This document shows, piece after piece, positions 9 through 14,251 of a DNA stretch of 64,000 nucleotides. Source of the DNA: an uncultured Bacillaceae bacterium (GTDB lineage Bacteria > Bacillota > Bacilli > Bacillales > Bacillaceae_L); the NCBI GenBank assembly GCA_947497585.1, contig CANMHG010000013.1:13568-77567 (forward strand), given 5' to 3'. The notes beneath the pieces are model-generated. The model made no database searches, was not told the origin of the DNA, and worked only from the letters and a program-made list of their open reading frames with translations. The stretch's first letter is position 1. Each line of letters opens with the position of its first letter. A program made the translations under genes and the position numbers.

Positions 9-935
9 TTATTCCCCCTGATTAATGGTTGATATGATTAATGAATATAATTCTTGAGCCGTAAATCGGTTTATTGGTCTACGTATTTGGTAAAGTTGAA
101 TATTATTGACAAAACTTGTCGTAAAAGTAAAATGCCATTCCAATAAGCCAGAAGGTTCTAGAAAGAAATTACGGTAGGTATGATAATACAATACTTGCAA
201 GCGTTCTAGACTATTAATAGGTTGTATATCAATAAGTTCATTTTCCGTCTTTGTTAATTCATACACTCCAGCTAGTGGGAGTTGCTTAGTTGCAAATTGA
301 GAATGAACTGGTATGGCAAACTTTGTTTCTCGCTCAATAATCGGGCGCAAACCGTCGAGCTCGATTCCAAATTCCTCAAGACTATTTTTCCATAGCTTTT
401 GTTGTGGATAAGCTGGTGTTACGACAGGAACATTTCCTTCAGTAAGCATAACTGGTATGACATCATCACTAATAAGCTGGTGGCCCCTATTTAGAAATGC
501 TGTTGCAAGCGTTGACTTTCCTGCACCAGAATCGCCAACAATTGCATATGCCTTTCCATTAACTTCTATTGCACTACCATGTAATGGTAGTATTTTTCGT
601 TGTAATAAGATTAACCCCATACATGTACCAAGTATATATAGCCTTAGCTGGTCTTCATGTACATTCTCCATTGGTGATACTAATATTTCTTTTCCTTCTT
701 TTACTAGGAAAATAGCTACATTTGGTATTTTAAACATTATCGTATCTTTATCCATACAGTAATAATTATTGTTTTCGCCTACTTCAAACCAGTCTTTTGA
801 TAGATTAGAATATTTAATTTCAATATCCACTTGAAATCCTTGTTTTTGAACTGAATAGAGTTCAGGTAGAAGGATTTCACTACTTATATTTAACCCAAAC
901 GCTGTGAAATCTGCACTTAATAATGTATCTTTCAT
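9..935 (-). CDS. Lasso peptide kinase, HPr kinase-like (PadeK type)
   Basis: LHGSA motif and Walker A GDSGAGKST; xxSDD motif; directly downstream of a lasso precursor ending in Ser, as in paeninodin-type clusters. Confidence 0.85.
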   Translation of the reverse strand: MKDTLLSADFTAFGLNISSEILLPELYSVQKQGFQVDIEIKYSNLSKDWFEVGENNNYYCMDKDTIMFKIPNVAIFLVKEGKEILVSPMENVHEDQLRLYILGTCMGLILLQRKILPLHGSAIEVNGKAYAIVGDSGAGKSTLATAFLNRGHQLISDDVIPVMLTEGNVPVVTPAYPQQKLWKNSLEEFGIELDGLRPIIERETKFAIPVHSQFATKQLPLAGVYELTKTENELIDIQPINSLERLQVLYYHTYRNFFLEPSGLLEWHFTFTTSFVNNIQLYQIRRPINRFTAQELYSLIISTINQGE

Positions 936-969
936 ATTTCCCCCTAGTTAAAGAGATAGATATACTTGC

Positions 970-1002
970 AACCCTTATATAAATGATATTTATATAAGGG
1001 TT
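970..1002 (-). promoter_or_regulatory. Perfect 15-bp stem-loop between precursor A1 and kinase (attenuator or mRNA stabiliser)
   Basis: AACCCTTATATAAAT-gat-ATTTATATAAGGGTT. Confidence 0.6.
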
Positions 1003-1022
1003 ATAATAATAGTTAATATTAA

Positions 1023-1196
1023 TTAGCTACCACCTAATAAATCAGGATGTACACATGCTTTATTTATCTTACCGTCGGGGTCAATATTTGGATGCGAACT
1101 CGTGCAATAACTATCTGAAACTGCTTCACCATCACCACCCATTGTCATACCAATATTAAGTACTTCTAAAACTGGCTGTTTCCATGATTTTCTCAT
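1023..1196 (-). CDS. Lasso peptide precursor A1, 57 aa: MRKSWKQPVLEVLNIGMTM / GGDGEAVSDSYCTSSHPNIDPDGKINKACVHPDLLGGS
   Basis: Hand-translated, not in ORF track. WxxPxLEVL leader, Thr at -2, Gly1, Asp9, C-terminal Ser; ATG overlaps the cyclase stop (TAATG). Confidence 0.92.
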   Translation of the reverse strand: MRKSWKQPVLEVLNIGMTMGGDGEAVSDSYCTSSHPNIDPDGKINKACVHPDLLGGS

Positions 1197-3163
1197 TAAA
1201 TCACCCCCTTTCTTCTAGTCTTTCTAATAAATCGATAGAGAACTAGAGCACGTGTTAACACTCTAAAATCATCTTTTAATACGAAATCCTGTTGAGGTAC
1301 CTCACTGTACTTAGGGATTAAATCTTTTATTACTTCTATATTGATTAGATCTTCTATTATAGGATCTCTAATAAGTTGTTGAAGTTCATCAATAAATGCC
1401 TTCCAAGTAGGAGTCATTCGATGTATTAGGTCTGCAGACTGCATACCTCGGCTTTTGTTGTTTAACCTAACCATATCTGGAAGATAGTGTCGGGTTGCTC
1501 GCCTAATTAATGAGCGATCCAACCCTCCTTTTGTATATTGTTCATTAGGTATAGATAAACAAAAACGTATCACTCTAATATCATTAGTTGGGTCTCGGTC
1601 CCATAATGAATATCTTAATGACAATTTCGTTGTTGCATTTCCTGTCTTATTCCAAGAATATAGTTTTGCAAAATGCTCATTTCTACCAATAAATGGTTTT
1701 CGACTAGATTCTTCTGTATGATTAACTCCATAATTTGCTAGCTTTTCATTTATGTTTGTTTTATTTGCTAATAAAGGATGAAGTAAGGATGGGAATCGGT
1801 AATCATCCTGATTATCATTATTAAAAATATTTGTAATAGAAGGTAAACTCCTCTTCACCAAAACTGGAAGAATAGTTGATTTTCCTGTATTGAAATTTTC
1901 ACAATACAGATCTAATTCTCTATATAATCTAAGCCACCTAAGATTCCTAAATAAATCTGTATAGTAATCTAAGTTGCACATGATAGAACCCCAAGAGATT
2001 GAAAAATTCCCTCTTGCTCCATTCAAGAGTACTTTAATTCCACTTTGCTGTGCCTTCTCATTTATCCCCATCAACCAAAACGAGTTTTCAAAAAATTTAT
2101 ATGGCATTTCCATAATATCTAGAAACTCGTCTAACTCTGTTAGTGGATTCCTGCCTTCAAAGTTTAAATAATGGTCAGTAATATTCCCCACTTGATTAAC
2201 GGTTTCCTTAATAAACGGTCGTTCATCAGCAATTAGATATTTTGAAGTCCAATCAACAAAGTCATTTGAGGGTATGTAACTAAAGGTGTATAATCTTTTG
2301 TTCTCTTTACACAGTTCCTTAGAGGCAAAACTAACGACAGATCCTGAATCTAAACCTCCACTTAGCTGCGCACCAACATTCCCAAAGGTACGTAGTCTAT
2401 CCTTAACAGCTCTTTCAAAAACTTCTCTAAAGGCCTCTTCATATTCACTATCTGATTTAAGTTTAATCATCTTGCAATCAACAACATTGCAATATTGAGA
2501 AATTCTTACTTTACCATTCTTAATAGAGATGGAATGTGCCGGAGGTATTTGCTTAATATCTTTATAGACAGTGGAGAGTGTATCGACTGATTCCACCATA
2601 CTAGGTATTGCTAAAAACTCTGCTAACCATTCCTCATTAAGCTCTTTACTAACATAGGGAAGAGAAAACAATGGTTCAATAGTCGTGGAAAAGGCAAATC
2701 GATTGTAGTCATTGAAAAAATATAGAGTTCTTGCTCCAGAAAAATCTCTTGCTCCAAAGAGAGTCCGCTCAATTTCATCCCATATGACGAATACAAAATC
2801 CCCTACCAAATGCTTTGGAGAGTCTTCTCCCCACTTTCTGTATGCTAGTAAAATTAATTTACTATCCGTCATTAGTGCTCTTTTCTCTTTTCGAACATCT
2901 AGCTTTTCAAACAATTCATTACGGTTATCAATAATACAATCTGATGTTATATATAGATTAGTTTCATAGTCATAATACGGTAGTTTTTCATTAACTGATT
3001 CAGGAGTGATCCATTGTGCGTGGCAACCAAAGAACAGATTCCCAGTATGAATCATATGGATATCATCCGCAGGAAACTGCTTGAACACCCTCATTAGTTC
3101 TTTAGTTTGTACAAGGTTAATAGGCTCTTGACTAAAATGAATTAGACCAGCGATTGCACTCAT
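1196..3163 (-). CDS. Lasso peptide cyclase C1 (asparagine synthetase-like, PadeC type)
   Basis: Starts MSAIAG, lacking the AsnB catalytic Cys; LSGGLDSG ATP motif; adjacent to precursor; start reassigned to ATG 3163 after GGAGG. Confidence 0.9.
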   Translation of the reverse strand: MSAIAGLIHFSQEPINLVQTKELMRVFKQFPADDIHMIHTGNLFFGCHAQWITPESVNEKLPYYDYETNLYITSDCIIDNRNELFEKLDVRKEKRALMTDSKLILLAYRKWGEDSPKHLVGDFVFVIWDEIERTLFGARDFSGARTLYFFNDYNRFAFSTTIEPLFSLPYVSKELNEEWLAEFLAIPSMVESVDTLSTVYKDIKQIPPAHSISIKNGKVRISQYCNVVDCKMIKLKSDSEYEEAFREVFERAVKDRLRTFGNVGAQLSGGLDSGSVVSFASKELCKENKRLYTFSYIPSNDFVDWTSKYLIADERPFIKETVNQVGNITDHYLNFEGRNPLTELDEFLDIMEMPYKFFENSFWLMGINEKAQQSGIKVLLNGARGNFSISWGSIMCNLDYYTDLFRNLRWLRLYRELDLYCENFNTGKSTILPVLVKRSLPSITNIFNNDNQDDYRFPSLLHPLLANKTNINEKLANYGVNHTEESSRKPFIGRNEHFAKLYSWNKTGNATTKLSLRYSLWDRDPTNDIRVIRFCLSIPNEQYTKGGLDRSLIRRATRHYLPDMVRLNNKSRGMQSADLIHRMTPTWKAFIDELQQLIRDPIIEDLINIEVIKDLIPKYSEVPQQDFVLKDDFRVLTRALVLYRFIRKTRRKGVI

Positions 3164-3210
3164 GATATCCTCCAACCCAAAGATAAATTAACTATACAGC
3201 ACACCCTTTT

Positions 3211-3252: not shown

Positions 3253-4476
3253 CTATTGTTCGTTCTTTATAAGTATGGACATTGATGACAGATTCGTAAG
3301 ATTATTTTTTGTTAAATAATCAATTATTGGATTTTTATCAAACGTATGATGTTCCACATTTCTTGAAAATGTTTGAAATAGCTTTACTACTATACTAACG
3401 TTAAAGTCTTCTTTATGATAAGCCAATAATCCTATAGTCTTCATTTTCAATAATGAATAATTGACAACTAGCATACTATACATTTCAAATACATCATTTT
3501 CTTTTGCTACTGGAAATAGATTTTTAAACATGTAGTTCACTAGGTAATTTTCAAAAATATATTCATGTTCTCTTATAAAGGGCTTAAAAAATGTTTCATA
3601 GGTATTCATGTAATCTTCTATACTCGACTCGTCTAGAGTTGGACCAGTAAATTTTATTCCATCTAATGATTCCATTACGCATTCCAAGTATCTTTTATCT
3701 TTAAGACCCGTGAAAATACCTATATCTACAATCTTCCTTAGAATCTGTATCTGATTATTTAAATCTAAGGGCAAATCATGGATCCTGTTAATTATTTCAC
3801 CACTATCAATTAATTGTTCGTAATTTCCTATTATATCAGTTATTTCATTATCTACTAACTTTATTAGGATTTCTTCCATAAACACTCCCAGTATTAGTAA
3901 CCGATCAGTCAAACTATACTTTCTATTTTGTACTATTTTTATTGAAAAATCTCTTAGTTCTAGAAAATAGTAGCGTTCTTTATGGGTACTTTCATATTTA
4001 GATGAATTTATCTTTCTTGATACCAAGTGACGGGTACTGGTTGATTCATTTATTTCTTCAAACTGAATCCCATTTGAATTGAGTAGCACAGTACGAGCTG
4101 CCTCTGGACAAGACACTGTTAATGAACTCTCAAGTCCCCCATTTACAAGGGATGTCACACGAGGGTATGTTGCACATAAATTTGAAAGATAGCCTTCTCC
4201 TTTATCAATATGCACACTACATAATTTTTCCTCAGTAAGTAAAGGACATAACGATTGTGAATTTAGAATAATCTCAGCAAACCATTCTTTGTTTGATTTA
4301 AACTCTATTTTTTTCAGAGATTTCTTTAACTTTTCATTTGATGATACCTGGTATTTCTCATAGGTATCTTGGTCAATTGTAATCCTCCATCCTGAGCAAC
4401 ATGTATCTTCACATGAAGAACCAACACATGAGAATTGTTTTAGATATTGAGGGACTCGAATGGTACGAGTTGACAT
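3253..4476 (-). CDS. FliB-family (flagellin lysine N-methylase-like) Cys-rich Fe-S protein
   Basis: FSCVGSSCEDTCCSGWRITID, CPLL..LCSVH, CATYPR, SCPEA; C-terminal ENYLVNYMF..LFP pattern typical of FliB. Confidence 0.75.
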   Translation of the reverse strand: MSTRTIRVPQYLKQFSCVGSSCEDTCCSGWRITIDQDTYEKYQVSSNEKLKKSLKKIEFKSNKEWFAEIILNSQSLCPLLTEEKLCSVHIDKGEGYLSNLCATYPRVTSLVNGGLESSLTVSCPEAARTVLLNSNGIQFEEINESTSTRHLVSRKINSSKYESTHKERYYFLELRDFSIKIVQNRKYSLTDRLLILGVFMEEILIKLVDNEITDIIGNYEQLIDSGEIINRIHDLPLDLNNQIQILRKIVDIGIFTGLKDKRYLECVMESLDGIKFTGPTLDESSIEDYMNTYETFFKPFIREHEYIFENYLVNYMFKNLFPVAKENDVFEMYSMLVVNYSLLKMKTIGLLAYHKEDFNVSIVVKLFQTFSRNVEHHTFDKNPIIDYLTKNNLTNLSSMSILIKNEQ

Positions 4477-4548: not shown

Positions 4549-4646
4549 TTTCACTATAAAGAACTAGTTTGACAATATCTCGTCAAAATTATTCTTTATT
4601 AAGAACAATATATGTTAAAAATATCATCTTAAAGCTTAGGTGTCAA
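4549..4646 (-). promoter_or_regulatory. sigma-A promoter for the FliB-like gene with two downstream SinR-type boxes
   Basis: TTGACA (4641-4646), 17 nt, TGa-TATTTT (4618-4623); boxes at 4591-4606 and 4549-4564. Confidence 0.65.
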
Positions 4647-4715: not shown

Positions 4716-4739
4716 GCCCCTAATTATATTTCTAGGGGC
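4716..4739 (-). terminator. Stem-loop after precursor A2
   Basis: GCCCCTA-N10-TAGGGGC; no strong U-tract. Confidence 0.4.
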
Positions 4740-4767: not shown

Positions 4768-4917
4768 TTAACTATCAATATCGTTTCCCCATGTTAAATC
4801 ACTAAATCTTGTGTTAGCAGGGAATGAATCATCGATAAAGTCTCCGGGTTGTGTATTCGCCATCGTCAAGTTTACATCTAGTACCTCAAGAACAGGCTTT
4901 ATCCATTCTTTTTTCAA
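4768..4917 (-). CDS. Lasso peptide precursor A2, 49 aa: MKKEWIKPVLEVLDVNLTM / ANTQPGDFIDDSFPANTRFSDLTWGNDIDS
   Basis: Hand-translated, TTG start after AAAGGAGGTG; paeninodin-like leader WxxPxLEVLDV..TM; C-terminal Ser; immediately after cyclase C2. Confidence 0.92.
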   Translation of the reverse strand: MKKEWIKPVLEVLDVNLTMANTQPGDFIDDSFPANTRFSDLTWGNDIDS

Positions 4918-4932
4918 ACCTATCACCTCCTT

Positions 4933-7180: not shown

Positions 7181-8260
7181 TTATAAAACGATATGGTCGA
7201 GGGTTCCTCTTAGAACTTCATTCTCTGTAGTCAATACCGGTTCTCTATCCATATCCCTAATCCATAGTAACCCATCCGGAAGAGGATTAAACTTCGTATC
7301 AAGCGCAGGAAACTTATTGTACAGAATAATATCTTTATAGATCTCAGGCATATTTAATCCTGCTTCTGTAAAGAAATAACATGTCGTAAAAAAGCGCATA
7401 TTTATCTCAGTAGGGTTAGGGAAATCATTTCTGTCATACGTCATATCCACACCGTATACTCCATGAGGCTTCTTATCAATCGCATATATTGTTTCCATAG
7501 CTACTTTGTTCACTGTTTCATCTGAGTAAGTCTCACCTACCCCAGTTATTCCAGTCACACCTGATAGTGTCCGATTACCAAATCCCCAGGACTTTCTTCT
7601 TCTAGTTTGGGCTACAACTAGCTCGCCTTCATACCAAATAGATAACCAAGTAACCGTCTTATCAGACTGGAGTAACTCTGAAGCAGTAAAACTTCCCCAA
7701 CCGTTATAGATATCTATCCAGTTTTGAGCAAACTCATAATCATTTGTAGGTAGTGCTCCTCTTCCACCAGCACCTACTGTAGATCTTAACCAGATTTTCC
7801 CCTCTTCATCTCCTAGATCTTGAAAAGCTTGTTTTAATTCATGTTTATCTCGAATAGGCAGTGTTTTTGGCACCTTAATACCTGTAGCTTCCCAAACCTT
7901 ATAGGATTTATATTTATCTGTACATGCTTCAATCACATCATGATCTGGCATAAATAACTTTGTACCTGTAGCTGTGATTTCATCTCGAAATCTTGAGGCT
8001 TCGAGTATTTCTCTATCATTCATAAAAACAGCTAAACTAGGTTTATCATTATTCATAATACCCAGTAATTCTTTTTTATAATCTTTTCCGAATGCATATT
8101 CATATGGGATGTGTCGCTTAGTTTCAGCCTTCGAAGTATACAAATTATAAGGATTCCTTGATAACCCTATTACTTCGTTCCTAATTTCCGCCTTATTCCA
8201 CGATTTTATAACATTCTCTGCTGGCGAAACCCCGACATCAGTTATTAGTATTTTCTCCAT
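7181..8260 (-). CDS. ATP-grasp (carboxylate-amine ligase-like) protein
   Basis: DKYKSY..W, IKVPKT, GAGGRG loop, GVDMT...TEINMRF pattern. Confidence 0.75.
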   Translation of the reverse strand: MEKILITDVGVSPAENVIKSWNKAEIRNEVIGLSRNPYNLYTSKAETKRHIPYEYAFGKDYKKELLGIMNNDKPSLAVFMNDREILEASRFRDEITATGTKLFMPDHDVIEACTDKYKSYKVWEATGIKVPKTLPIRDKHELKQAFQDLGDEEGKIWLRSTVGAGGRGALPTNDYEFAQNWIDIYNGWGSFTASELLQSDKTVTWLSIWYEGELVVAQTRRRKSWGFGNRTLSGVTGITGVGETYSDETVNKVAMETIYAIDKKPHGVYGVDMTYDRNDFPNPTEINMRFFTTCYFFTEAGLNMPEIYKDIILYNKFPALDTKFNPLPDGLLWIRDMDREPVLTTENEVLRGTLDHIVL

Positions 8261-8278
8261 TTCAGCACCTCTTTATAA

Positions 8279-8893
8279 TTATAGATTCCTAGATATTCCC
8301 TTGTACCTTTCCATACTGAAGTGATTCTTTGAACTTACTCCTTCTTTTTTAAATACCTTTTTTATTGTTACTAGTAAAATTTTCATATCCAGCCAAACAG
8401 ATTGATTATTAACATACCAGATATCTAATTCAAATTTTTCTTCCCAGTTAATTGCATTCCGTCCGTTTATTTGAGCCCAGCCAGTTATCCCGGGTTTGAC
8501 TTCATGTCTTCGAGCCTGTTCTTCGGTATACAAAGGTAAATACTCCATTAATAATGGACGGGGACCTACTAAACTTAAATCACCCTTAATGACATTGAAT
8601 AGTTGTGGTAACTCATCTAAACTATATTTACGTAACAAGATTCCTAGTTTGGTTAATCTGTATTTTCCAGGTAATAGATTGCCTTGATTATCTTTCTTAT
8701 CATTCATTGTTCTAAACTTATATATATATAAAGGCTTTCCATATAAACCTGGTCGGACTTGTTTAAATAATATTGGTGAACCCATCTTTATATAAATAAT
8801 TGCGGAAATCAGAATTAAAAATGGCGAAAAAATAATGACTAATGATAGGGCACCAAATAAATCTATTAATCTTTTCAAAGTATCCACCTCCAT
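8279..8893 (-). CDS. Priming sugar-phosphate transferase (EpsL/PglC family)
   Basis: KRLIDL, FKQVRPG, YKFRTM, SLDELPQL, VGPRP, KPGITGWAQ. Confidence 0.92.
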   Translation of the reverse strand: MEVDTLKRLIDLFGALSLVIIFSPFLILISAIIYIKMGSPILFKQVRPGLYGKPLYIYKFRTMNDKKDNQGNLLPGKYRLTKLGILLRKYSLDELPQLFNVIKGDLSLVGPRPLLMEYLPLYTEEQARRHEVKPGITGWAQINGRNAINWEEKFELDIWYVNNQSVWLDMKILLVTIKKVFKKEGVSSKNHFSMERYKGISRNL

Positions 8894-8919
8894 AACATTA
8901 CTTTGAAAAATATTTTAAG

Positions 8920-9750
8920 TTAATTTATATCTCTTTCTCTAACTCGGTTTAAGGGATGATTGTAGAGGAAAAAGTATTGTCTTCTCTTTTCGATATATTT
9001 AGGAGTCATGATCTTTATTTCTTTTCCTTCTACTACATTGATTGCATTACTTTGTAGGAATTCTCTATACCTTGATGAATAATGTAGTTCTATAAAATCA
9101 TAGGCTTCAGTTAACTCGAACTTTCGCCTTGTGTAATGATGTGCATCAGATGCTACGAAATGAACAAGTTCATGATCTAGGAGATGTCTAGAAAAGTTTT
9201 TCAACCTATTCCCATGCAGTCCTAATATACTTGCAGCTGTTACTTGTATAAGTATTCCACTTTGTACAAGCTTATAAATTTCAGAGGGATTTTTTCTTAG
9301 AATTCTATTTCTCTCCGGGTGAGCAAGAATTGGAAGAAACCCCATTTCTTTTAACTGGGAGAAAACATCTACTATATATGATGGATAATTTTTAGAATGT
9401 GGCTCCATCAATAAGTATTTTCCTGTGTTATTTAATGTTAAAAAACTATCGAGCTTTTCTTCTAAATCATATTGAATTTCTTCATGTAAATGAAATTCAA
9501 TTCCTGGCATTACAACTAAAGGGATATTTTTCTCTTGCAATAATTGATTTAGTTTATCAACCATTTTTATTATAGTAGCAGGATCATTTTCGTAAAAATA
9601 CTGATGGTGTTGATGTTTATGATGTGGAGTTGCAATCACATGTGTTATTCCTGTCTCTACGGCTTGTTTGGCCAACAATATTGCTTCTTCCCAATCATGT
9701 GGACCATCATCTAGTCCAGGTAAAATGTGGTTATGAATGTCCACAATCAT
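8920..9750 (-). CDS. PHP-family tyrosine-protein phosphatase (CpsB/YwqE type)
   Basis: DIHNHILPGLDDG, ATPHH, AHPERN, ASDAH; start reassigned to ATG 9750 after AAGGAG. Confidence 0.9.
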   Translation of the reverse strand: MIVDIHNHILPGLDDGPHDWEEAILLAKQAVETGITHVIATPHHKHQHHQYFYENDPATIIKMVDKLNQLLQEKNIPLVVMPGIEFHLHEEIQYDLEEKLDSFLTLNNTGKYLLMEPHSKNYPSYIVDVFSQLKEMGFLPILAHPERNRILRKNPSEIYKLVQSGILIQVTAASILGLHGNRLKNFSRHLLDHELVHFVASDAHHYTRRKFELTEAYDFIELHYSSRYREFLQSNAINVVEGKEIKIMTPKYIEKRRQYFFLYNHPLNRVRERDIN

Positions 9751-9800
9751 TTTCTTGCTCCTTTCGAAAAACACTAACAAACCCCCACAAAGAACAACAG

Positions 9801-9816
9801 GTTCTTTATAAAGAAC
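9801..9816. promoter_or_regulatory. SinR-type operator
   Basis: Perfect palindrome GTTCTTTATAAAGAAC upstream of the phosphatase. Confidence 0.65.
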
Positions 9817-9847
9817 AATACTATACTATTACTTTTATTGCAATACC

Positions 9848-10603
9848 TTATTCATAAATTGCATTTGCATATTTTCTCTTAAAAAGACATACTCCTGCAT
9901 TTTCTAATATTTTTACCATTAATTCAGAATTAGGATAGTTTATTTCTTTATAAAGATTTATTACCTTATTCAAATCATATTGAACTCTCACTATTGAAGT
10001 TTGAACACAATCTTCCTCAATATCAACGAGAGCATAGGATGATTGATTCACACCATCAAATGGAAGCCCAACACTTCCTATATTTATTATACATTTCCCA
10101 TTTATGTATCTTATATATGGCTTATGTATATGTGCATAGATATATATATTTGCATTATTGCTCATTAACTTTTCAGTTAGTAAATCATCACTTTCTTGTG
10201 GTGAAACGATTTCAAATAAGCTTTTAGGTGTGGCATGGAATGCATGAATTTTAGCTCTACCAAATTCTAATTCTAATTCGGTTGGTAGATTTTCAAGGTA
10301 GCTAACATCTTTAGACTCTAGTTTAGAGACAGTCCATTCTCTTTCGGTACTCATTATTTCTAATGCTGAATCAGGAACCTCACCTTGCCTAATTCCACGA
10401 ACCACCCATTCATCTGCGTTACCTTTTATTACTTCGGTATTTAAGGTTCTAACTAAATCAAGTGACTTTTTAGGTTCTGGTCCCCTAAAGCACAGGTCTC
10501 CTAAAACATAAACTTTGTCAACGTTTCTTTCTTTAATATCCTTCAATACCGCTTCTAATGCTGTTGCATTTCCATGAATATCTGAAATAAATGCTAGTTT
10601 CAT
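9848..10603 (-). CDS. Metallophosphoesterase
   Basis: SDIHGN, LGDL, GNAD, FHA, AHIH, GSVG motifs. Confidence 0.88.
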   Translation of the reverse strand: MKLAFISDIHGNATALEAVLKDIKERNVDKVYVLGDLCFRGPEPKKSLDLVRTLNTEVIKGNADEWVVRGIRQGEVPDSALEIMSTEREWTVSKLESKDVSYLENLPTELELEFGRAKIHAFHATPKSLFEIVSPQESDDLLTEKLMSNNANIYIYAHIHKPYIRYINGKCIINIGSVGLPFDGVNQSSYALVDIEEDCVQTSIVRVQYDLNKVINLYKEINYPNSELMVKILENAGVCLFKRKYANAIYE

Positions 10604-10633
10604 TTGTTGTACCCCATTTCTAAAAATACTTTA

Positions 10634-10665
10634 AGGAGATGGTCCCCTTTTTTAGACCACCTCCT
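10634..10665 (-). terminator. Internal terminator-like hairpin
   Basis: On the minus strand AGGAGGTGGTC-N10-GACCATCTCCT (11 bp with one G.U), then an A/U-rich tract. Confidence 0.5.
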
Positions 10666-10722
10666 ATGAATTTTAGACTTTATACCACATTCGTATACTT
10701 AGAATTTCTTTATTAGATTATT

Positions 10723-11874
10723 TTAGATATTTATTGGTGCCTTATTAATTGTTTCATACCACGCAGTTAATGCCAGGCTTTCAGGTAACTCAACATCATC
10801 AAAAGTTATCATTTCTCCTGCTTCAACTTCCCTTTTCAACACTGCATTTACAAGCAACCCAATCGGAACATGGTTAGCATTGGTAGCAATTTTAACTGCA
10901 ACTCCTCTTACTTGGAAACTTCCAATGCCTTTCTCGATTGTCTCACCTAGTTGGAGTGTTCTTTTAGCAATTGCTGCAACACTAATAGTAGGATTTTCAC
11001 CATTGTTTAATAGAACTCCACCACCATTAATGACACGTCTAATCGTTTTCATAATTTCTAAATGACATAGATGGTAGTTTTGTAGAATTGTGTAGTAAGG
11101 ACCTTCTCCCATTTTATAGTAACGAAGGGCATCTTTTTGTCGAATATCGTGTTCTGCTGTGATAAAAACTCCTGGAGGAGCTTTAGGTGCTAAAACATAT
11201 TCACAAATTGGATAACCTAAACTATTAGCCTCTATTGCTAACTCCTCTCCAGTTTCATTTAAATTATCTGAACTCGGAGAAAGTAAGCCATTAACTGCTA
11301 TTCCCGCCCCAAGACCATTTGCTACTAGTGCTTGTTCAATTTGCACTTTTGTCCCATCAGTGAAGGATGTTGTCATATCAAGTCTTACACCATTTCGATT
11401 TGACCAATATTCCATATCCTCACGTTTTGGATCTAGGTTTAGAAATCCTTTAATATTTCCATAAACCAACGGCTTGAAGCCCATTTGAACAACATTTTCA
11501 TGTAGTGAAGCTAAGCAACCTGGTTGATCTCCTTCAGCCTCCGTAATAAATCCTCTTCTAGCAAAATATGAACCGGTTGTTACTTGAAGCTCTGCATTCA
11601 TTGTTACAACTGGTTTAGATGCTTTGATGGCTTTATCAATGACTTCCGTTCCATAGATAACATCCCCACTACATTCAACAATTAAGTCGCACTCTTCAAT
11701 AAACTCTTCCATAGAATTTGTAAGAACTTCGGAAAATGGATATTCCATAGTGTTTATATCACGGCGAGTGAGCACCTTTGATAAAATTAAGTCGGTTTGC
11801 TTCTCCACTTCAAAGGCTAAGCCCTTACCAATTAAACCTGTTCCAGCTATACCTATTCTAGTTAATTTATCCAC
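10723..11874 (-). CDS. NAD(P)-dependent oxidoreductase, homoserine dehydrogenase-like with C-terminal SAF domain
   Basis: GIAGTGLIG, AEGDQPG, DGTKVQIE, C-terminal SAF-like segment; GTG start after GGAGG. Confidence 0.75.
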   Translation of the reverse strand: MDKLTRIGIAGTGLIGKGLAFEVEKQTDLILSKVLTRRDINTMEYPFSEVLTNSMEEFIEECDLIVECSGDVIYGTEVIDKAIKASKPVVTMNAELQVTTGSYFARRGFITEAEGDQPGCLASLHENVVQMGFKPLVYGNIKGFLNLDPKREDMEYWSNRNGVRLDMTTSFTDGTKVQIEQALVANGLGAGIAVNGLLSPSSDNLNETGEELAIEANSLGYPICEYVLAPKAPPGVFITAEHDIRQKDALRYYKMGEGPYYTILQNYHLCHLEIMKTIRRVINGGGVLLNNGENPTISVAAIAKRTLQLGETIEKGIGSFQVRGVAVKIATNANHVPIGLLVNAVLKREVEAGEMITFDDVELPESLALTAWYETINKAPINI

Positions 11875-11909
11875 TAATATTCCTCCATCTGGTACCATGA
11901 CCACAAACT

Positions 11910-11925
11910 ATTCATTATAACGAAC
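11910..11925. promoter_or_regulatory. Degenerate SinR-type operator
   Basis: ATTCATTATAACGAAC in a short intergenic gap. Confidence 0.45.
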
Positions 11926-11941
11926 AATTCCGCAAAAAAAA

Positions 11942-13006
11942 TTATTTTGTCGAAACAAGTGTATCCACTGTTTCACTACTTTCAATTTCTAAAATTCCAC
12001 CATACATATCTACCTGTTTCATGATGCTTTGCCATTTAATTAATTCTTTATACCAGTTTAAGGTTATTGTTTGTTCTGACTTCTTAAGGTTACCACTCTC
12101 TAATGCTTTATAAATTTGTAAAGCCCCGTCAGCTGCGGTATATTTTGCTTCCCAATTTAAAAGTTTTTCGATTTTATCAAAATTCACACGATATGAACGA
12201 TGATCTGGGTCACCGTACCACTCAATCTTTACTTCAATAGGTAGCGCTTCTGCAATTTCTTCCGCTAAAGGTCCTAATTGATAGTTGTTTCGGTTTGATC
12301 CTACATTCAATATTTCACCATTAATTATTTGTCCATCAGCTTCTAGTAATAAGCACATAACATCAGTTGTATCTTCAACGTGTACCATAGGTCTCCACTG
12401 TGAGCCATCTCTCATTAATGGAATAACACCATTCTCCCATGCACCATAAGTCATTCCATTGATGGCTAAGTCAAATCTCATTCTTGGTGAATACCCATAA
12501 ACAGTTGCTTGCCTCATTACCACAACAGTAAAATCTTGATCAGCTAACGGAAGAACTCCTTGTTCAGCTTTTTCATTTGCTTTTGCATAAACGGTTAATG
12601 GATTAGTAGGTGATGTTTCGTCAACAATTACGTCCTTATCCTGGAATCCATAAAGACTGCATGAAGATGGTAAAATGTAACGCTCTACCCCCATTTTCTT
12701 CGCTAAAGTTGCTGTATTTACTCTAGATAAGTGATTCACTTCATATGTAACCTCTTTAAACAATTCCCCACTCGGATCGTTCGAAATTGCTACTAAATCA
12801 ATAACTGCATCAACATCTACAAAATGTTCTTCCTTTAATCTTCTACAATCTTCATGAACAATTGTTAGATTAGGATGTGGTTGAAGCTTATCGACACCAA
12901 AGTAAAAACGATCAACCGCTTTAACCTCATAGCCTTTTGCTAACAACTTTGGAACTAAAATGCTACCAATATAGCCACCTGCACCTGTAACAAGTATATT
13001 TTTCAT
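11942..13006 (-). CDS. Extended SDR, NAD-dependent epimerase/dehydratase
   Basis: TGAGGYIG, ISNDP, R.ATVYG.SPRMRFDL; YAKAN in place of YxxxK. Confidence 0.85.
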   Translation of the reverse strand: MKNILVTGAGGYIGSILVPKLLAKGYEVKAVDRFYFGVDKLQPHPNLTIVHEDCRRLKEEHFVDVDAVIDLVAISNDPSGELFKEVTYEVNHLSRVNTATLAKKMGVERYILPSSCSLYGFQDKDVIVDETSPTNPLTVYAKANEKAEQGVLPLADQDFTVVVMRQATVYGYSPRMRFDLAINGMTYGAWENGVIPLMRDGSQWRPMVHVEDTTDVMCLLLEADGQIINGEILNVGSNRNNYQLGPLAEEIAEALPIEVKIEWYGDPDHRSYRVNFDKIEKLLNWEAKYTAADGALQIYKALESGNLKKSEQTITLNWYKELIKWQSIMKQVDMYGGILEIESSETVDTLVSTK

Positions 13007-13018
13007 TTAATTTCCCCC

Positions 13019-14251
13019 CTATGAAATGTTTTCATTTACATTTTCTTTTTGTCGACCTTGTTTAACTACTATTTGATCCACTACATATCTTGAAAAAGGA
13101 AATGCGCATGTGAATCCTGGTGAAACAGCATTTAAGATATGAAAAGATTGTTGATCTCCTTCAACCACAAAATCTTGTACGAGCTCTAGAGTATCCTTGT
13201 TTAGAAGTTGTGCACGGATACCTGGTCTCATAAACTGCCCAAATCCGTTTTTATCTACTTTCTTTACCATTTTTAAAGATAAATTAATAAAATATGATTT
13301 CATATACTTTCTCATTTCTTCAATAGCAAGTGAACGGAAGTTAAAAGAGTTGTTTATAAAAAGCTTTGCTTCATAATATAAAATGGTCATAAACTCGTTT
13401 AAGTTAAAATTTTTCAACCCGCTGTAGTTTTCTCTCCAAAATGCAGGGATAGCGGTCGGTCCAATTTTAATCGAATCATCCACTGTTTTTGTAAAATGAA
13501 CGCCTAAAAATGGATTTGCTAAATTAGGAACTGGATAAATATTAGTTAACACATCCGTCTTGTTTTTTGCATATTTCAAATAGATTCCTTTAAATGGAAT
13601 AATTGTGTACTTCTCTCCGAACTTAAAATCCTTAGCGATTTTATCTGCATACAATCCTGCTGCATTTATAAAGTAATTACAACGAAAAGATCCCTTGCTA
13701 GTTTTAATTTCATCATTAGATTTCCCAAGGTATTGTGTATTACGAATTATATCGACCCCTAGATTAATTACATCTGTTTTAATTGATTTGCATACCTCTA
13801 TAGGGTCAACAGAAGATGTAGACGGTGAATAGAGTGCTTTTTTATACGTTTTTACATTGGGATCAATTTTTCTTACCTCTGATTCTTTCACCCAGTTTAA
13901 CTCTACTCCATTTTTCTCTGCTCTCTTTTTTAATTCTACTAACCCGTTTAATTCTTCCTCATTTGTTGCAACCACAAGTTTCCCGCACTTGTTAATTTTC
14001 AGACCCTTTTCCTCACAATACTTAGTCATCTCTCGGTTTCCATCTCTAGTAAACTTAGCTTTCAAGCTATTAGCCGAATAATAAAATCCAGCATGTAAAA
14101 CCCCGCTATTTCTTCCGCTTGAGTGAAATGCAACATCAGATTCCTTTTCTATAATGCAGATAGAATTTTTCGGGAAACGAGTCTTCAATTCCCTCGCGAT
14201 GGATAAACCAATGATTCCTCCACCTACTATAATGTAATCATAGAACTTCAT
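13019..14251 (-). CDS. FAD-dependent oxidoreductase, L-2-hydroxyglutarate oxidase (LhgO)-like
   Basis: VGGGIIG, SGRNSGVLHAG, YPVP...PFLGVHFT, GIRAQ, NAVSPGFT. Confidence 0.85.
   Translation of the reverse strand: MKFYDYIIVGGGIIGLSIARELKTRFPKNSICIIEKESDVAFHSSGRNSGVLHAGFYYSANSLKAKFTRDGNREMTKYCEEKGLKINKCGKLVVATNEEELNGLVELKKRAEKNGVELNWVKESEVRKIDPNVKTYKKALYSPSTSSVDPIEVCKSIKTDVINLGVDIIRNTQYLGKSNDEIKTSKGSFRCNYFINAAGLYADKIAKDFKFGEKYTIIPFKGIYLKYAKNKTDVLTNIYPVPNLANPFLGVHFTKTVDDSIKIGPTAIPAFWRENYSGLKNFNLNEFMTILYYEAKLFINNSFNFRSLAIEEMRKYMKSYFINLSLKMVKKVDKNGFGQFMRPGIRAQLLNKDTLELVQDFVVEGDQQSFHILNAVSPGFTCAFPFSRYVVDQIVVKQGRQKENVNENIS

Follow-up and report, generated by a model that had tools for sequence, protein, structure and literature searches.

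Lasso peptides are prized as stable scaffolds, and the characterised phosphorylated representatives (paeninodin, pseudomycoidin) are short and free of cysteine. The 64,000-nucleotide stretch of DNA analysed here (the window, from an uncultured Bacillaceae bacterium) raises the question of what is made from a precursor, A1, that appears to belong to the same family and yet has a predicted core of 38 residues, with a pair of cysteines beyond the presumptive macrolactam ring and a serine at its end. In the original prediction the product was taken to be a disulfide-containing, C-terminally phosphorylated lasso peptide, and this combination was thought to be unusual. The gene and its landmarks are as follows:

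1201..1210, minus strand: Shine-Dalgarno sequence of A1, AAGGGGGTGA, recognised by sequence reading within the 3' end of the cyclase gene C1, 4 nt 5' of the ATG
1023..1196, minus strand: A1 precursor gene, 57 aa, defined by the open reading frame and its translation from an ATG start
1196-1140, minus strand: A1 leader, residues 1-19
1139-1026, minus strand: A1 core, residues 20-57
1137-1139, minus strand: codon of core Gly1
1113-1115, minus strand: codon of core Asp9
1104..1106, minus strand: codon of core Cys12, conserved in all A1-type orthologues
1059..1070, minus strand: codons of Lys24-Ile-Asn-Lys27 (K-x-x-K motif), inferred candidate target of a FliB-like methylase
1053..1055, minus strand: codon of core Cys29, position 29 being that of the second Cys in most two-Cys cores
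1026-1028, minus strand: codon of core Ser38
1025-1023, minus strand: A1 stop codon

The translation of the reading frame at 1023-1196 is exactly that given originally, and comprises the leader MRKSWKQPVLEVLNIGMTM followed by the core GGDGEAVSDSYCTSSHPNIDPDGKINKACVHPDLLGGS (whole product MRKSWKQPVLEVLNIGMTMGGDGEAVSDSYCTSSHPNIDPDGKINKACVHPDLLGGS). We regard A1 as a real gene because it matches the NCBIfam model for paeninodin family lasso peptides (NF033524) at 41.7 bits (E 7e-11, residues 2-30), well above the curated cut-off of 27 bits, because it has a strong Shine-Dalgarno sequence, because its ATG (1196-1194) overlaps the stop codon of C1 (1198-1196) in a TAATG arrangement indicative of translational coupling, and because its core is under strong purifying selection. 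When A1 is compared with two orthologues at ~76% nucleotide identity, the core codons show 15-20 synonymous and 4-5 non-synonymous differences, and the leader is freer to change than the core. The closest orthologues (77-81% identity) are found in Fredinandcohnia humi, Fredinandcohnia sp. 179-A 10B2 NHS and Bacillus sp. JJ1566; all three bear an NCBI annotation that places them in the paeninodin family of lasso peptides, and all three lie in syntenic clusters, and the synteny is also seen in two more distant genomes. The small size of the open reading frame, and nothing more, would speak for a non-functional relic or a chance ORF, a reading that is effectively refuted by the score above cut-off, the Shine-Dalgarno sequence and coupling to C1, the synteny in three orthologous and two more distant genomes and the strong purifying selection.

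The leader of A1 contains the (Y/W)xxPxL motif for RRE recognition (W5-K-Q-P8-V-L10) and a threonine at position -2 (T18-M19, followed by G20 of the core), and the W, P and T are invariant in the precursor alignment. From the motif and Thr18 we place the core at 38 residues, in agreement with the original prediction. Asp9 is the sole acidic residue among core positions 7-9, Cys12 and Cys29 form the only Cys pair and both follow Asp9, and the last residue is Ser38. The proposed Gly1-Asp9 geometry, the two post-ring cysteines, the terminal serine and the assignment to the paeninodin type are all supported. Conservation of the cysteines in homologs, which had been suggested as a check, is also observed, both residues being present in every A1 orthologue; the three closest orthologues retain Cys12, Cys29, Lys24, Lys27, Asp9 and the terminal Ser. 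Glu5 of A1 is replaced by Asn in other orthologues and is therefore not the ring acceptor.

The genes and non-coding elements that surround A1 are:

9..935, minus strand: HPr-kinase-like peptide kinase K, 308 aa, Hpr_kinase_C domain, directly downstream of A1
969..1003, minus strand: perfect 16-bp stem-loop between A1 and K, without a U-tract (MFE fold, z-score -3.4)
1196..3175, minus strand: lasso cyclase C1, 659 aa, Asn_synthase and GATase domains
3253..4476, minus strand: FliB-like [4Fe-4S] lysine N-methylase homologue, 407 aa, NF038110, candidate tailoring enzyme
4618..4646, minus strand: promoter-like TTGACA-17-TATTTT with extended TG, upstream of the FliB-like gene, from a consensus scan only
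4716..4739, minus strand: terminator-like hairpin downstream of A2
4768..4926, minus strand: second precursor A2, core ANTQPGDFIDDSFPANTRFSDLTWGNDIDS, no Cys, terminal Ser, NF033524 at 41.4 bits
4933..6876, minus strand: lasso cyclase C2, 647 aa
contig C13 9776-13572 (locus L003), same strand as K: B1 (PqqD RRE), B2 (leader peptidase), N and D (ABC exporter)

The first base of the window is base 13568 of contig C13, and the rest of the operon was sought in the preceding 13.5 kb. The cluster has the order C2-A2-FliB-like-C1-A1-K in the window and continues just outside it with B1-B2-N-D, all on the minus strand; a VanZ-family gene is also part of this continuation. B1 and B2 were identified by NCBIfam and D by ABC-transporter matches. 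N has no NCBIfam match and was assigned as PsmN-like (NTP_transf_5) from PF14907 matches to orthologous N genes and from its conserved residues D135 and D137. The stem-loop between A1 and K recurs, with the same stem base and in the same place, in four related loci (the three orthologous clusters and Evansella clarkii). A stem-loop between precursor and enzyme genes is the usual arrangement for producing more precursor than enzyme transcript, and this one probably governs the ratio of precursor to enzyme, either by attenuation or by stabilising the mRNA. The promoter-like site is weak and the transcription-unit boundaries are tentative, because such sites are no more numerous than in shuffled sequence. 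Directly upstream of the cluster (window 7181-14251, minus strand) are polysaccharide-type genes encoding an ATP-grasp protein, a sugar transferase, a CpsB-like phosphatase and an epimerase, and the same neighbours flank the three orthologous lasso clusters.

The modifying enzymes retain their catalytic residues. Residues H119, K140, D157 and D158 of K are intact and, in alignments of 65-68 homologs of K and N, at least 97% conserved, as are D135 and D137 (DxD) of N. A His-Lys-Asp-Asp catalytic motif has been described for lasso peptide kinases (PMC9266682), and D135 and D137 are equivalent to D134 and D136 of PsmN (PMC6993621). In the pseudomycoidin system PsmK (poly)phosphorylates the terminal serine and PsmN adds a hexose to the phosphate (PMC6993621; PMC9266682). 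The sequence hallmarks of a phosphorylated lasso peptide of the PadeK/ThcoK/PsmK type, namely a terminal serine (here Ser38) and a kinase with the catalytic motif, are both found at this locus.

A search with NF033524 of 401 genomes drawn evenly from the same order was positive in 91 of them, and extraction of all match regions yielded 140 unique cores. No cysteine is present in 98 of these, one in 13, two in 28 and three in 1, compared with 84, 43, 11 and 2 expected under independence; single-Cys cores are hence about 3-fold rarer than chance predicts, although these statistics are inflated by shared ancestry because most two-Cys cores belong to one clade. A terminal Ser is almost universal in the family (138/140). 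The median core length is 24 aa without Cys as against 35.5 aa with two, and two-Cys cores range from 26 to 47 aa. Asp9 combined with Thr at -2 is found in 26 of the 28. The first Cys occupies position 10 or 12, apart from one core in which it is at 8; the second is mostly found at 29 and has 2-18 residues after it. Within the two-Cys clade the sequence between the cysteines diverges while the pair is retained. The main core type reads NGPGNAN[AP]DCFDVSEG..ETH.G.SNASC...S and the smaller type, to which A1 belongs, GG.G.A..DSYCT...DGKINKAC...S; both have a DGxxNxxC motif. When 1.8 billion representative proteins were searched separately with a profile, 64 matches were obtained; at least 13 of these represent additional 50%-identity clusters in which the core is long, contains exactly two Cys and ends in Ser.

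The two-Cys precursors are also associated with a cyclase lineage of their own. A single branch with 100/100 support separates the cyclases encoded directly upstream of two-Cys precursors (28) from 59 others; C1 falls on the two-Cys side of this branch and C2 on the other, from which C1 appears to be dedicated to A1 and C2 to be paired with A2. The best NCBIfam match of C1 is NF033535 at 383.9 bits, below the 525-bit cut-off. The view that the combination is unusual is consequently not supported: 28 of 140 unique family cores (20%) share this architecture, which stands out only when set beside the few characterised peptides and, judged from these sequences, is old, coherent and common (~20% of the family in this order). 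About a fifth of the paeninodin-family precursors in the order thus form a coherent branch for which our literature search found neither a study nor a characterised member, and a full-text search found no paper containing the two-Cys core motifs. This branch is a testable target for establishing how long a substrate a lasso cyclase can thread, and bears on whether a loop-closing disulfide can substitute for steric plugs and on how a disulfide cooperates with a phospho-glycosyl tail.

The explanation that we favour, with moderate confidence, is that A1 is a translated lasso precursor of the paeninodin/pseudomycoidin type from this widespread, long two-Cys subfamily, matured by a route that can be drawn by analogy with the characterised systems. 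K would phosphorylate core Ser38 on the linear precursor, B1 would bind the WxxPxL leader, and B2 would cleave after Met19, two residues after Thr18. C1 would then join the Gly1 amine to the side chain of Asp9, forming a 9-residue ring around the tail, N would add a hexose to the phosphate and D, the ABC transporter, would export the product. A Cys12-Cys29 disulfide would close an 18-residue loop that starts just after the ring, which would formally make the product a class IV-type lasso, class IV being a structural label. The expected product has 38 residues. This length counts against the explanation, since to our knowledge no lasso cyclase has been shown to process so long a core. The record-holders for size in a 2026 review are achromonodin-1 (30 aa) and pandonodin (33 aa) (PMC13352647). 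The monoisotopic masses calculated for A1 are 3811.705 Da for the linear core, 3793.695 Da for the macrolactam, 3791.679 Da once a disulfide is added, 3871.645 Da with one phosphate as well and 4033.698 Da with both phosphate and hexose; every N-methyl group would contribute another 14.016 Da.

We infer the disulfide from the fact that the cysteines are strictly paired and sit at a fixed place beside the ring, from the export of the peptide and from the precedent of class IV. The conservation of the pair in itself signifies a joint function of the two residues, which need not be a disulfide. The lasso cluster contains no gene for a thiol oxidoreductase; a DsbB/BdbC-family oxidase is encoded in the genome, and no dedicated enzyme appears to be needed for the disulfides of class IV lassos (PMC9266682). 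Taken together with Ser38 and K, a disulfide plus a C-terminal phosphoserine is plausible for A1.

It is conceivable that the product is instead a class II lasso in which no disulfide forms, the cysteines being left reduced or serving to bind a metal or as reactive thiols. A metal site would also appear as a conserved Cys pair, the missing oxidoreductase gene would fit, and Cys12, His16, Cys29 and His31 of A1 could form a C2H2-like site. However, His16 and His31 are both absent from the Evansella clarkii orthologue, His31 is absent from a further orthologue (genome G144), and the main two-Cys clade has different residues at these positions, so that a C2H2 site was rejected as the main explanation. 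Moreover, the peptide would be exported by the ABC transporter into an oxidising milieu, and in characterised lassos whose tail holds two cysteines these are joined in a disulfide, for which no dedicated enzyme is used (PMC9266682). We therefore judge the reduced or metal-bound state unlikely. A DxDxDG-like calcium loop in the sequence NIDPDG was likewise dropped, because only the 'DG' is conserved across the clade.

Threading of A1 is uncertain, because pseudomycoidin lacking its modifications is not threaded (PMC6993621). The product could accordingly be a branched-cyclic, unthreaded macrolactam that owes its compact shape to the disulfide, as might be suspected from the behaviour of pseudomycoidin made without the kinase and N (PMC6993621) and from two-Cys relatives in which the second Cys is followed by 2-3 residues, leaving little tail to serve as a lower plug. 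This outcome nevertheless seems distinctly unlikely to us in view of the complete B1/B2/C machinery and the conserved, dedicated cyclase lineage, and because the phosphate and hexose were proposed to act as the lower plug by the pseudomycoidin authors (PMC6993621) and both of the enzymes concerned are intact here. Still more improbable is a shift of register, in which cleavage after Gly20 would give a 37-aa core with an 8-residue Gly-Asp ring, or the use of another acidic acceptor. A glycine N-terminus would result in both registers, as the A1 core starts with Gly-Gly, and the Asp at position 10 of A2-type cores in the same clusters hints at a variable register. On the other hand, Thr at -2 and Asp at +9 occur in 26/28 two-Cys cores, including those that start with Asn-Gly or Leu-Gly, for which only one register yields a 9-residue ring; as for other acceptors, the Asn replacing Glu5 in other orthologues speaks against this residue, and Asp3 is too close to the N-terminus.

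The favoured assignment, a long two-Cys lasso of the paeninodin/pseudomycoidin type, can be set against the systems that it most resembles. The pseudomycoidin cluster of Bacillus pseudomycoides (psmC-A-K-B1-B2-N-D; PMC6993621) has an order identical to that from C1 to D, and the resemblance extends to the type of leader, the C-terminal Ser, the Asp-Asp metal site of the kinase and the DxD of the NTP_transf_5 protein. Pseudomycoidin is shorter (~2.6 kDa), has been described as class II and is encoded with a single C-A pair and no FliB-like gene (PMC6993621), whereas A1 has 38 core residues, a Cys pair and a cyclase of a separate lineage. Paeninodin from Paenibacillus dendritiformis (PadeA/PadeK) shares with A1 the precursor family, the division of B into B1 and B2 and an HPr-kinase-like enzyme, which in the paeninodin system takes the linear precursor as its substrate and phosphorylates the last Ser, but paeninodin is class II and shorter (PMC9266682); the paeninodin-like cores in our survey are 22-28 aa long and contain no Cys. 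The pade cluster, unlike that of A1, has no N gene (PMC6993621). The class IV lassos (LP2006, pandonodin and the felipeptins) resemble A1 in having one Cys pair wholly after the ring, and pandonodin is also unusually long, with 33 aa and an 18-aa tail (PMC9266682, PMC13352647). In contrast to the two-Cys family described here, the producers of these peptides are Actinobacteria and Proteobacteria, and two reviews describe for them neither a kinase nor a C-terminal phosphoserine or hexosylation (PMC9266682, PMC13352647). The first Cys in our family lies 1-3 residues after the ring Asp, which is also unlike class IV lassos.

A further feature of the locus is the FliB-like gene, the product of which scores 306.5 bits against the FliB equivalog model NF038110 (cut-off 85). 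A CX4CX3CC motif (C17, C22, C26 and C27) is invariant in the FliB-like proteins, which contain further conserved Cys residues. This motif binds a [4Fe-4S] cluster in Salmonella FliB (PMC8598068), where it is located at the same residue numbers (PMC8598068, PMC7181671). Unlike the Salmonella gene, that in the window is flanked by a lasso module on either side and falls within a lasso-only clade. It is the sole FliB homolog in the genome, so that a role in flagellin modification may also apply; the flagellin genes are on contig C3 and not adjacent. We examined the 80 closest relatives in public genomes, obtained by a search with an alignment of four FliB-like proteins. Flagellin is encoded within 10 kb in 56/80, while 4/80 are located in lasso clusters, none of these four being near flagellin. 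The seven lasso-linked sequences, comprising these four relatives, the copy in the window and two from the survey (window 3253-4476, L009, L010, L011, L014, L175 and L187), form one clade with 100/100 support, nested among flagellin-linked sequences.

Within lasso clusters, the FliB-like gene is found only beside three core types, namely ...DGKINKAC... (the A1 type), NGKSSKSND... (Paenibacillus foliorum) and AGPLAKGKPD... (genome G174), each of which has a K-x(1-2)-K motif. Such a motif is present in 3/3 FliB-positive but only 8/62 FliB-negative survey clusters (Fisher p 0.004, a value that ignores shared ancestry). The gene is absent from all surveyed two-Cys clusters of the NGPGNAN...SNASC type, on which ground a general role as a two-Cys accessory (e.g. 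in disulfide chemistry) was rejected, and it can represent at most an optional tailoring step, because the A1-type cluster of Bacillus sp. JJ1566 does not contain it. From the sequences, the enzyme may N-methylate Lys24 and Lys27 of A1. We put forward, tentatively and as a possibility that we consider less likely than not, that a FliB-type clade has left the flagellin locus for lasso tailoring and that here Lys24 and/or Lys27 of A1 are N-methylated. If so, the product would be a 38-residue lasso with three kinds of modification (N-methyl-lysine, a disulfide in the tail and a phospho-hexose at the C-terminus). It would also be the longest lasso and the first to contain methyl-lysine, and the FliB family would gain its first substrate other than flagellin. 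With a lasso-specific FliB clade, an unusual [4Fe-4S] methyltransferase chemistry would reach beyond flagellin into RiPPs; our literature search found no paper in which FliB is considered together with lasso peptides.

Several variations in the arrangement of these clusters were observed in the survey. Approximately 20 of 25 two-Cys clusters (loci L119-L193) are 'twin-module', with two cyclase-precursor pairs and one K-B1-B2-N-D set, and the partner precursor is usually a Cys-free sequence of the ASTV.GPYTDEAYVPG... or AGPG...PDAVQPDPD... type. A2-type cores (for instance SNPHSGNALDQTY... and ASTVWGPYTDEAY..., compared in loci L179, L128, L138, L131 and L149) have their conserved acidic residue at position 10 by the Thr(-2) rule and not at 7-9, from which it follows that either the leader is cut one residue further on (placing Thr at -3) or the ring has 10 residues; with its D7, D10 and D11, A2 is ambiguous in this respect. 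Loci L148 and L167 each encode three precursors, one of them with an 18-aa core, FRCLPPLSVGTE[DE]FNCES, that contains two Cys and no acidic residue at positions 7-9. A metallophosphoesterase gene (PF00149, 320-340 aa) is located inside or beside related lasso clusters (L004 5531-6493, L005 6588-7550, L006 3729-4691 and L007 15029-16051), and there is none in the cluster of the window. Finally, a paeninodin-type leader is also found in front of Pro/Gly-rich cores that start with Lys-[Gly/Phe]-[Trp/Phe/His] (e.g. KGWKHGHGG...FGS) and mostly end in Ser (loci L143, L150, L157, L160, L164, L171, L172, L178, L185, L186, L189, L192, L195, L199, L201 and L204). Neither a kinase nor B1, B2 or N is encoded within ~10 kb at these loci, and several of the genomes concerned hold a complete lasso cluster elsewhere.
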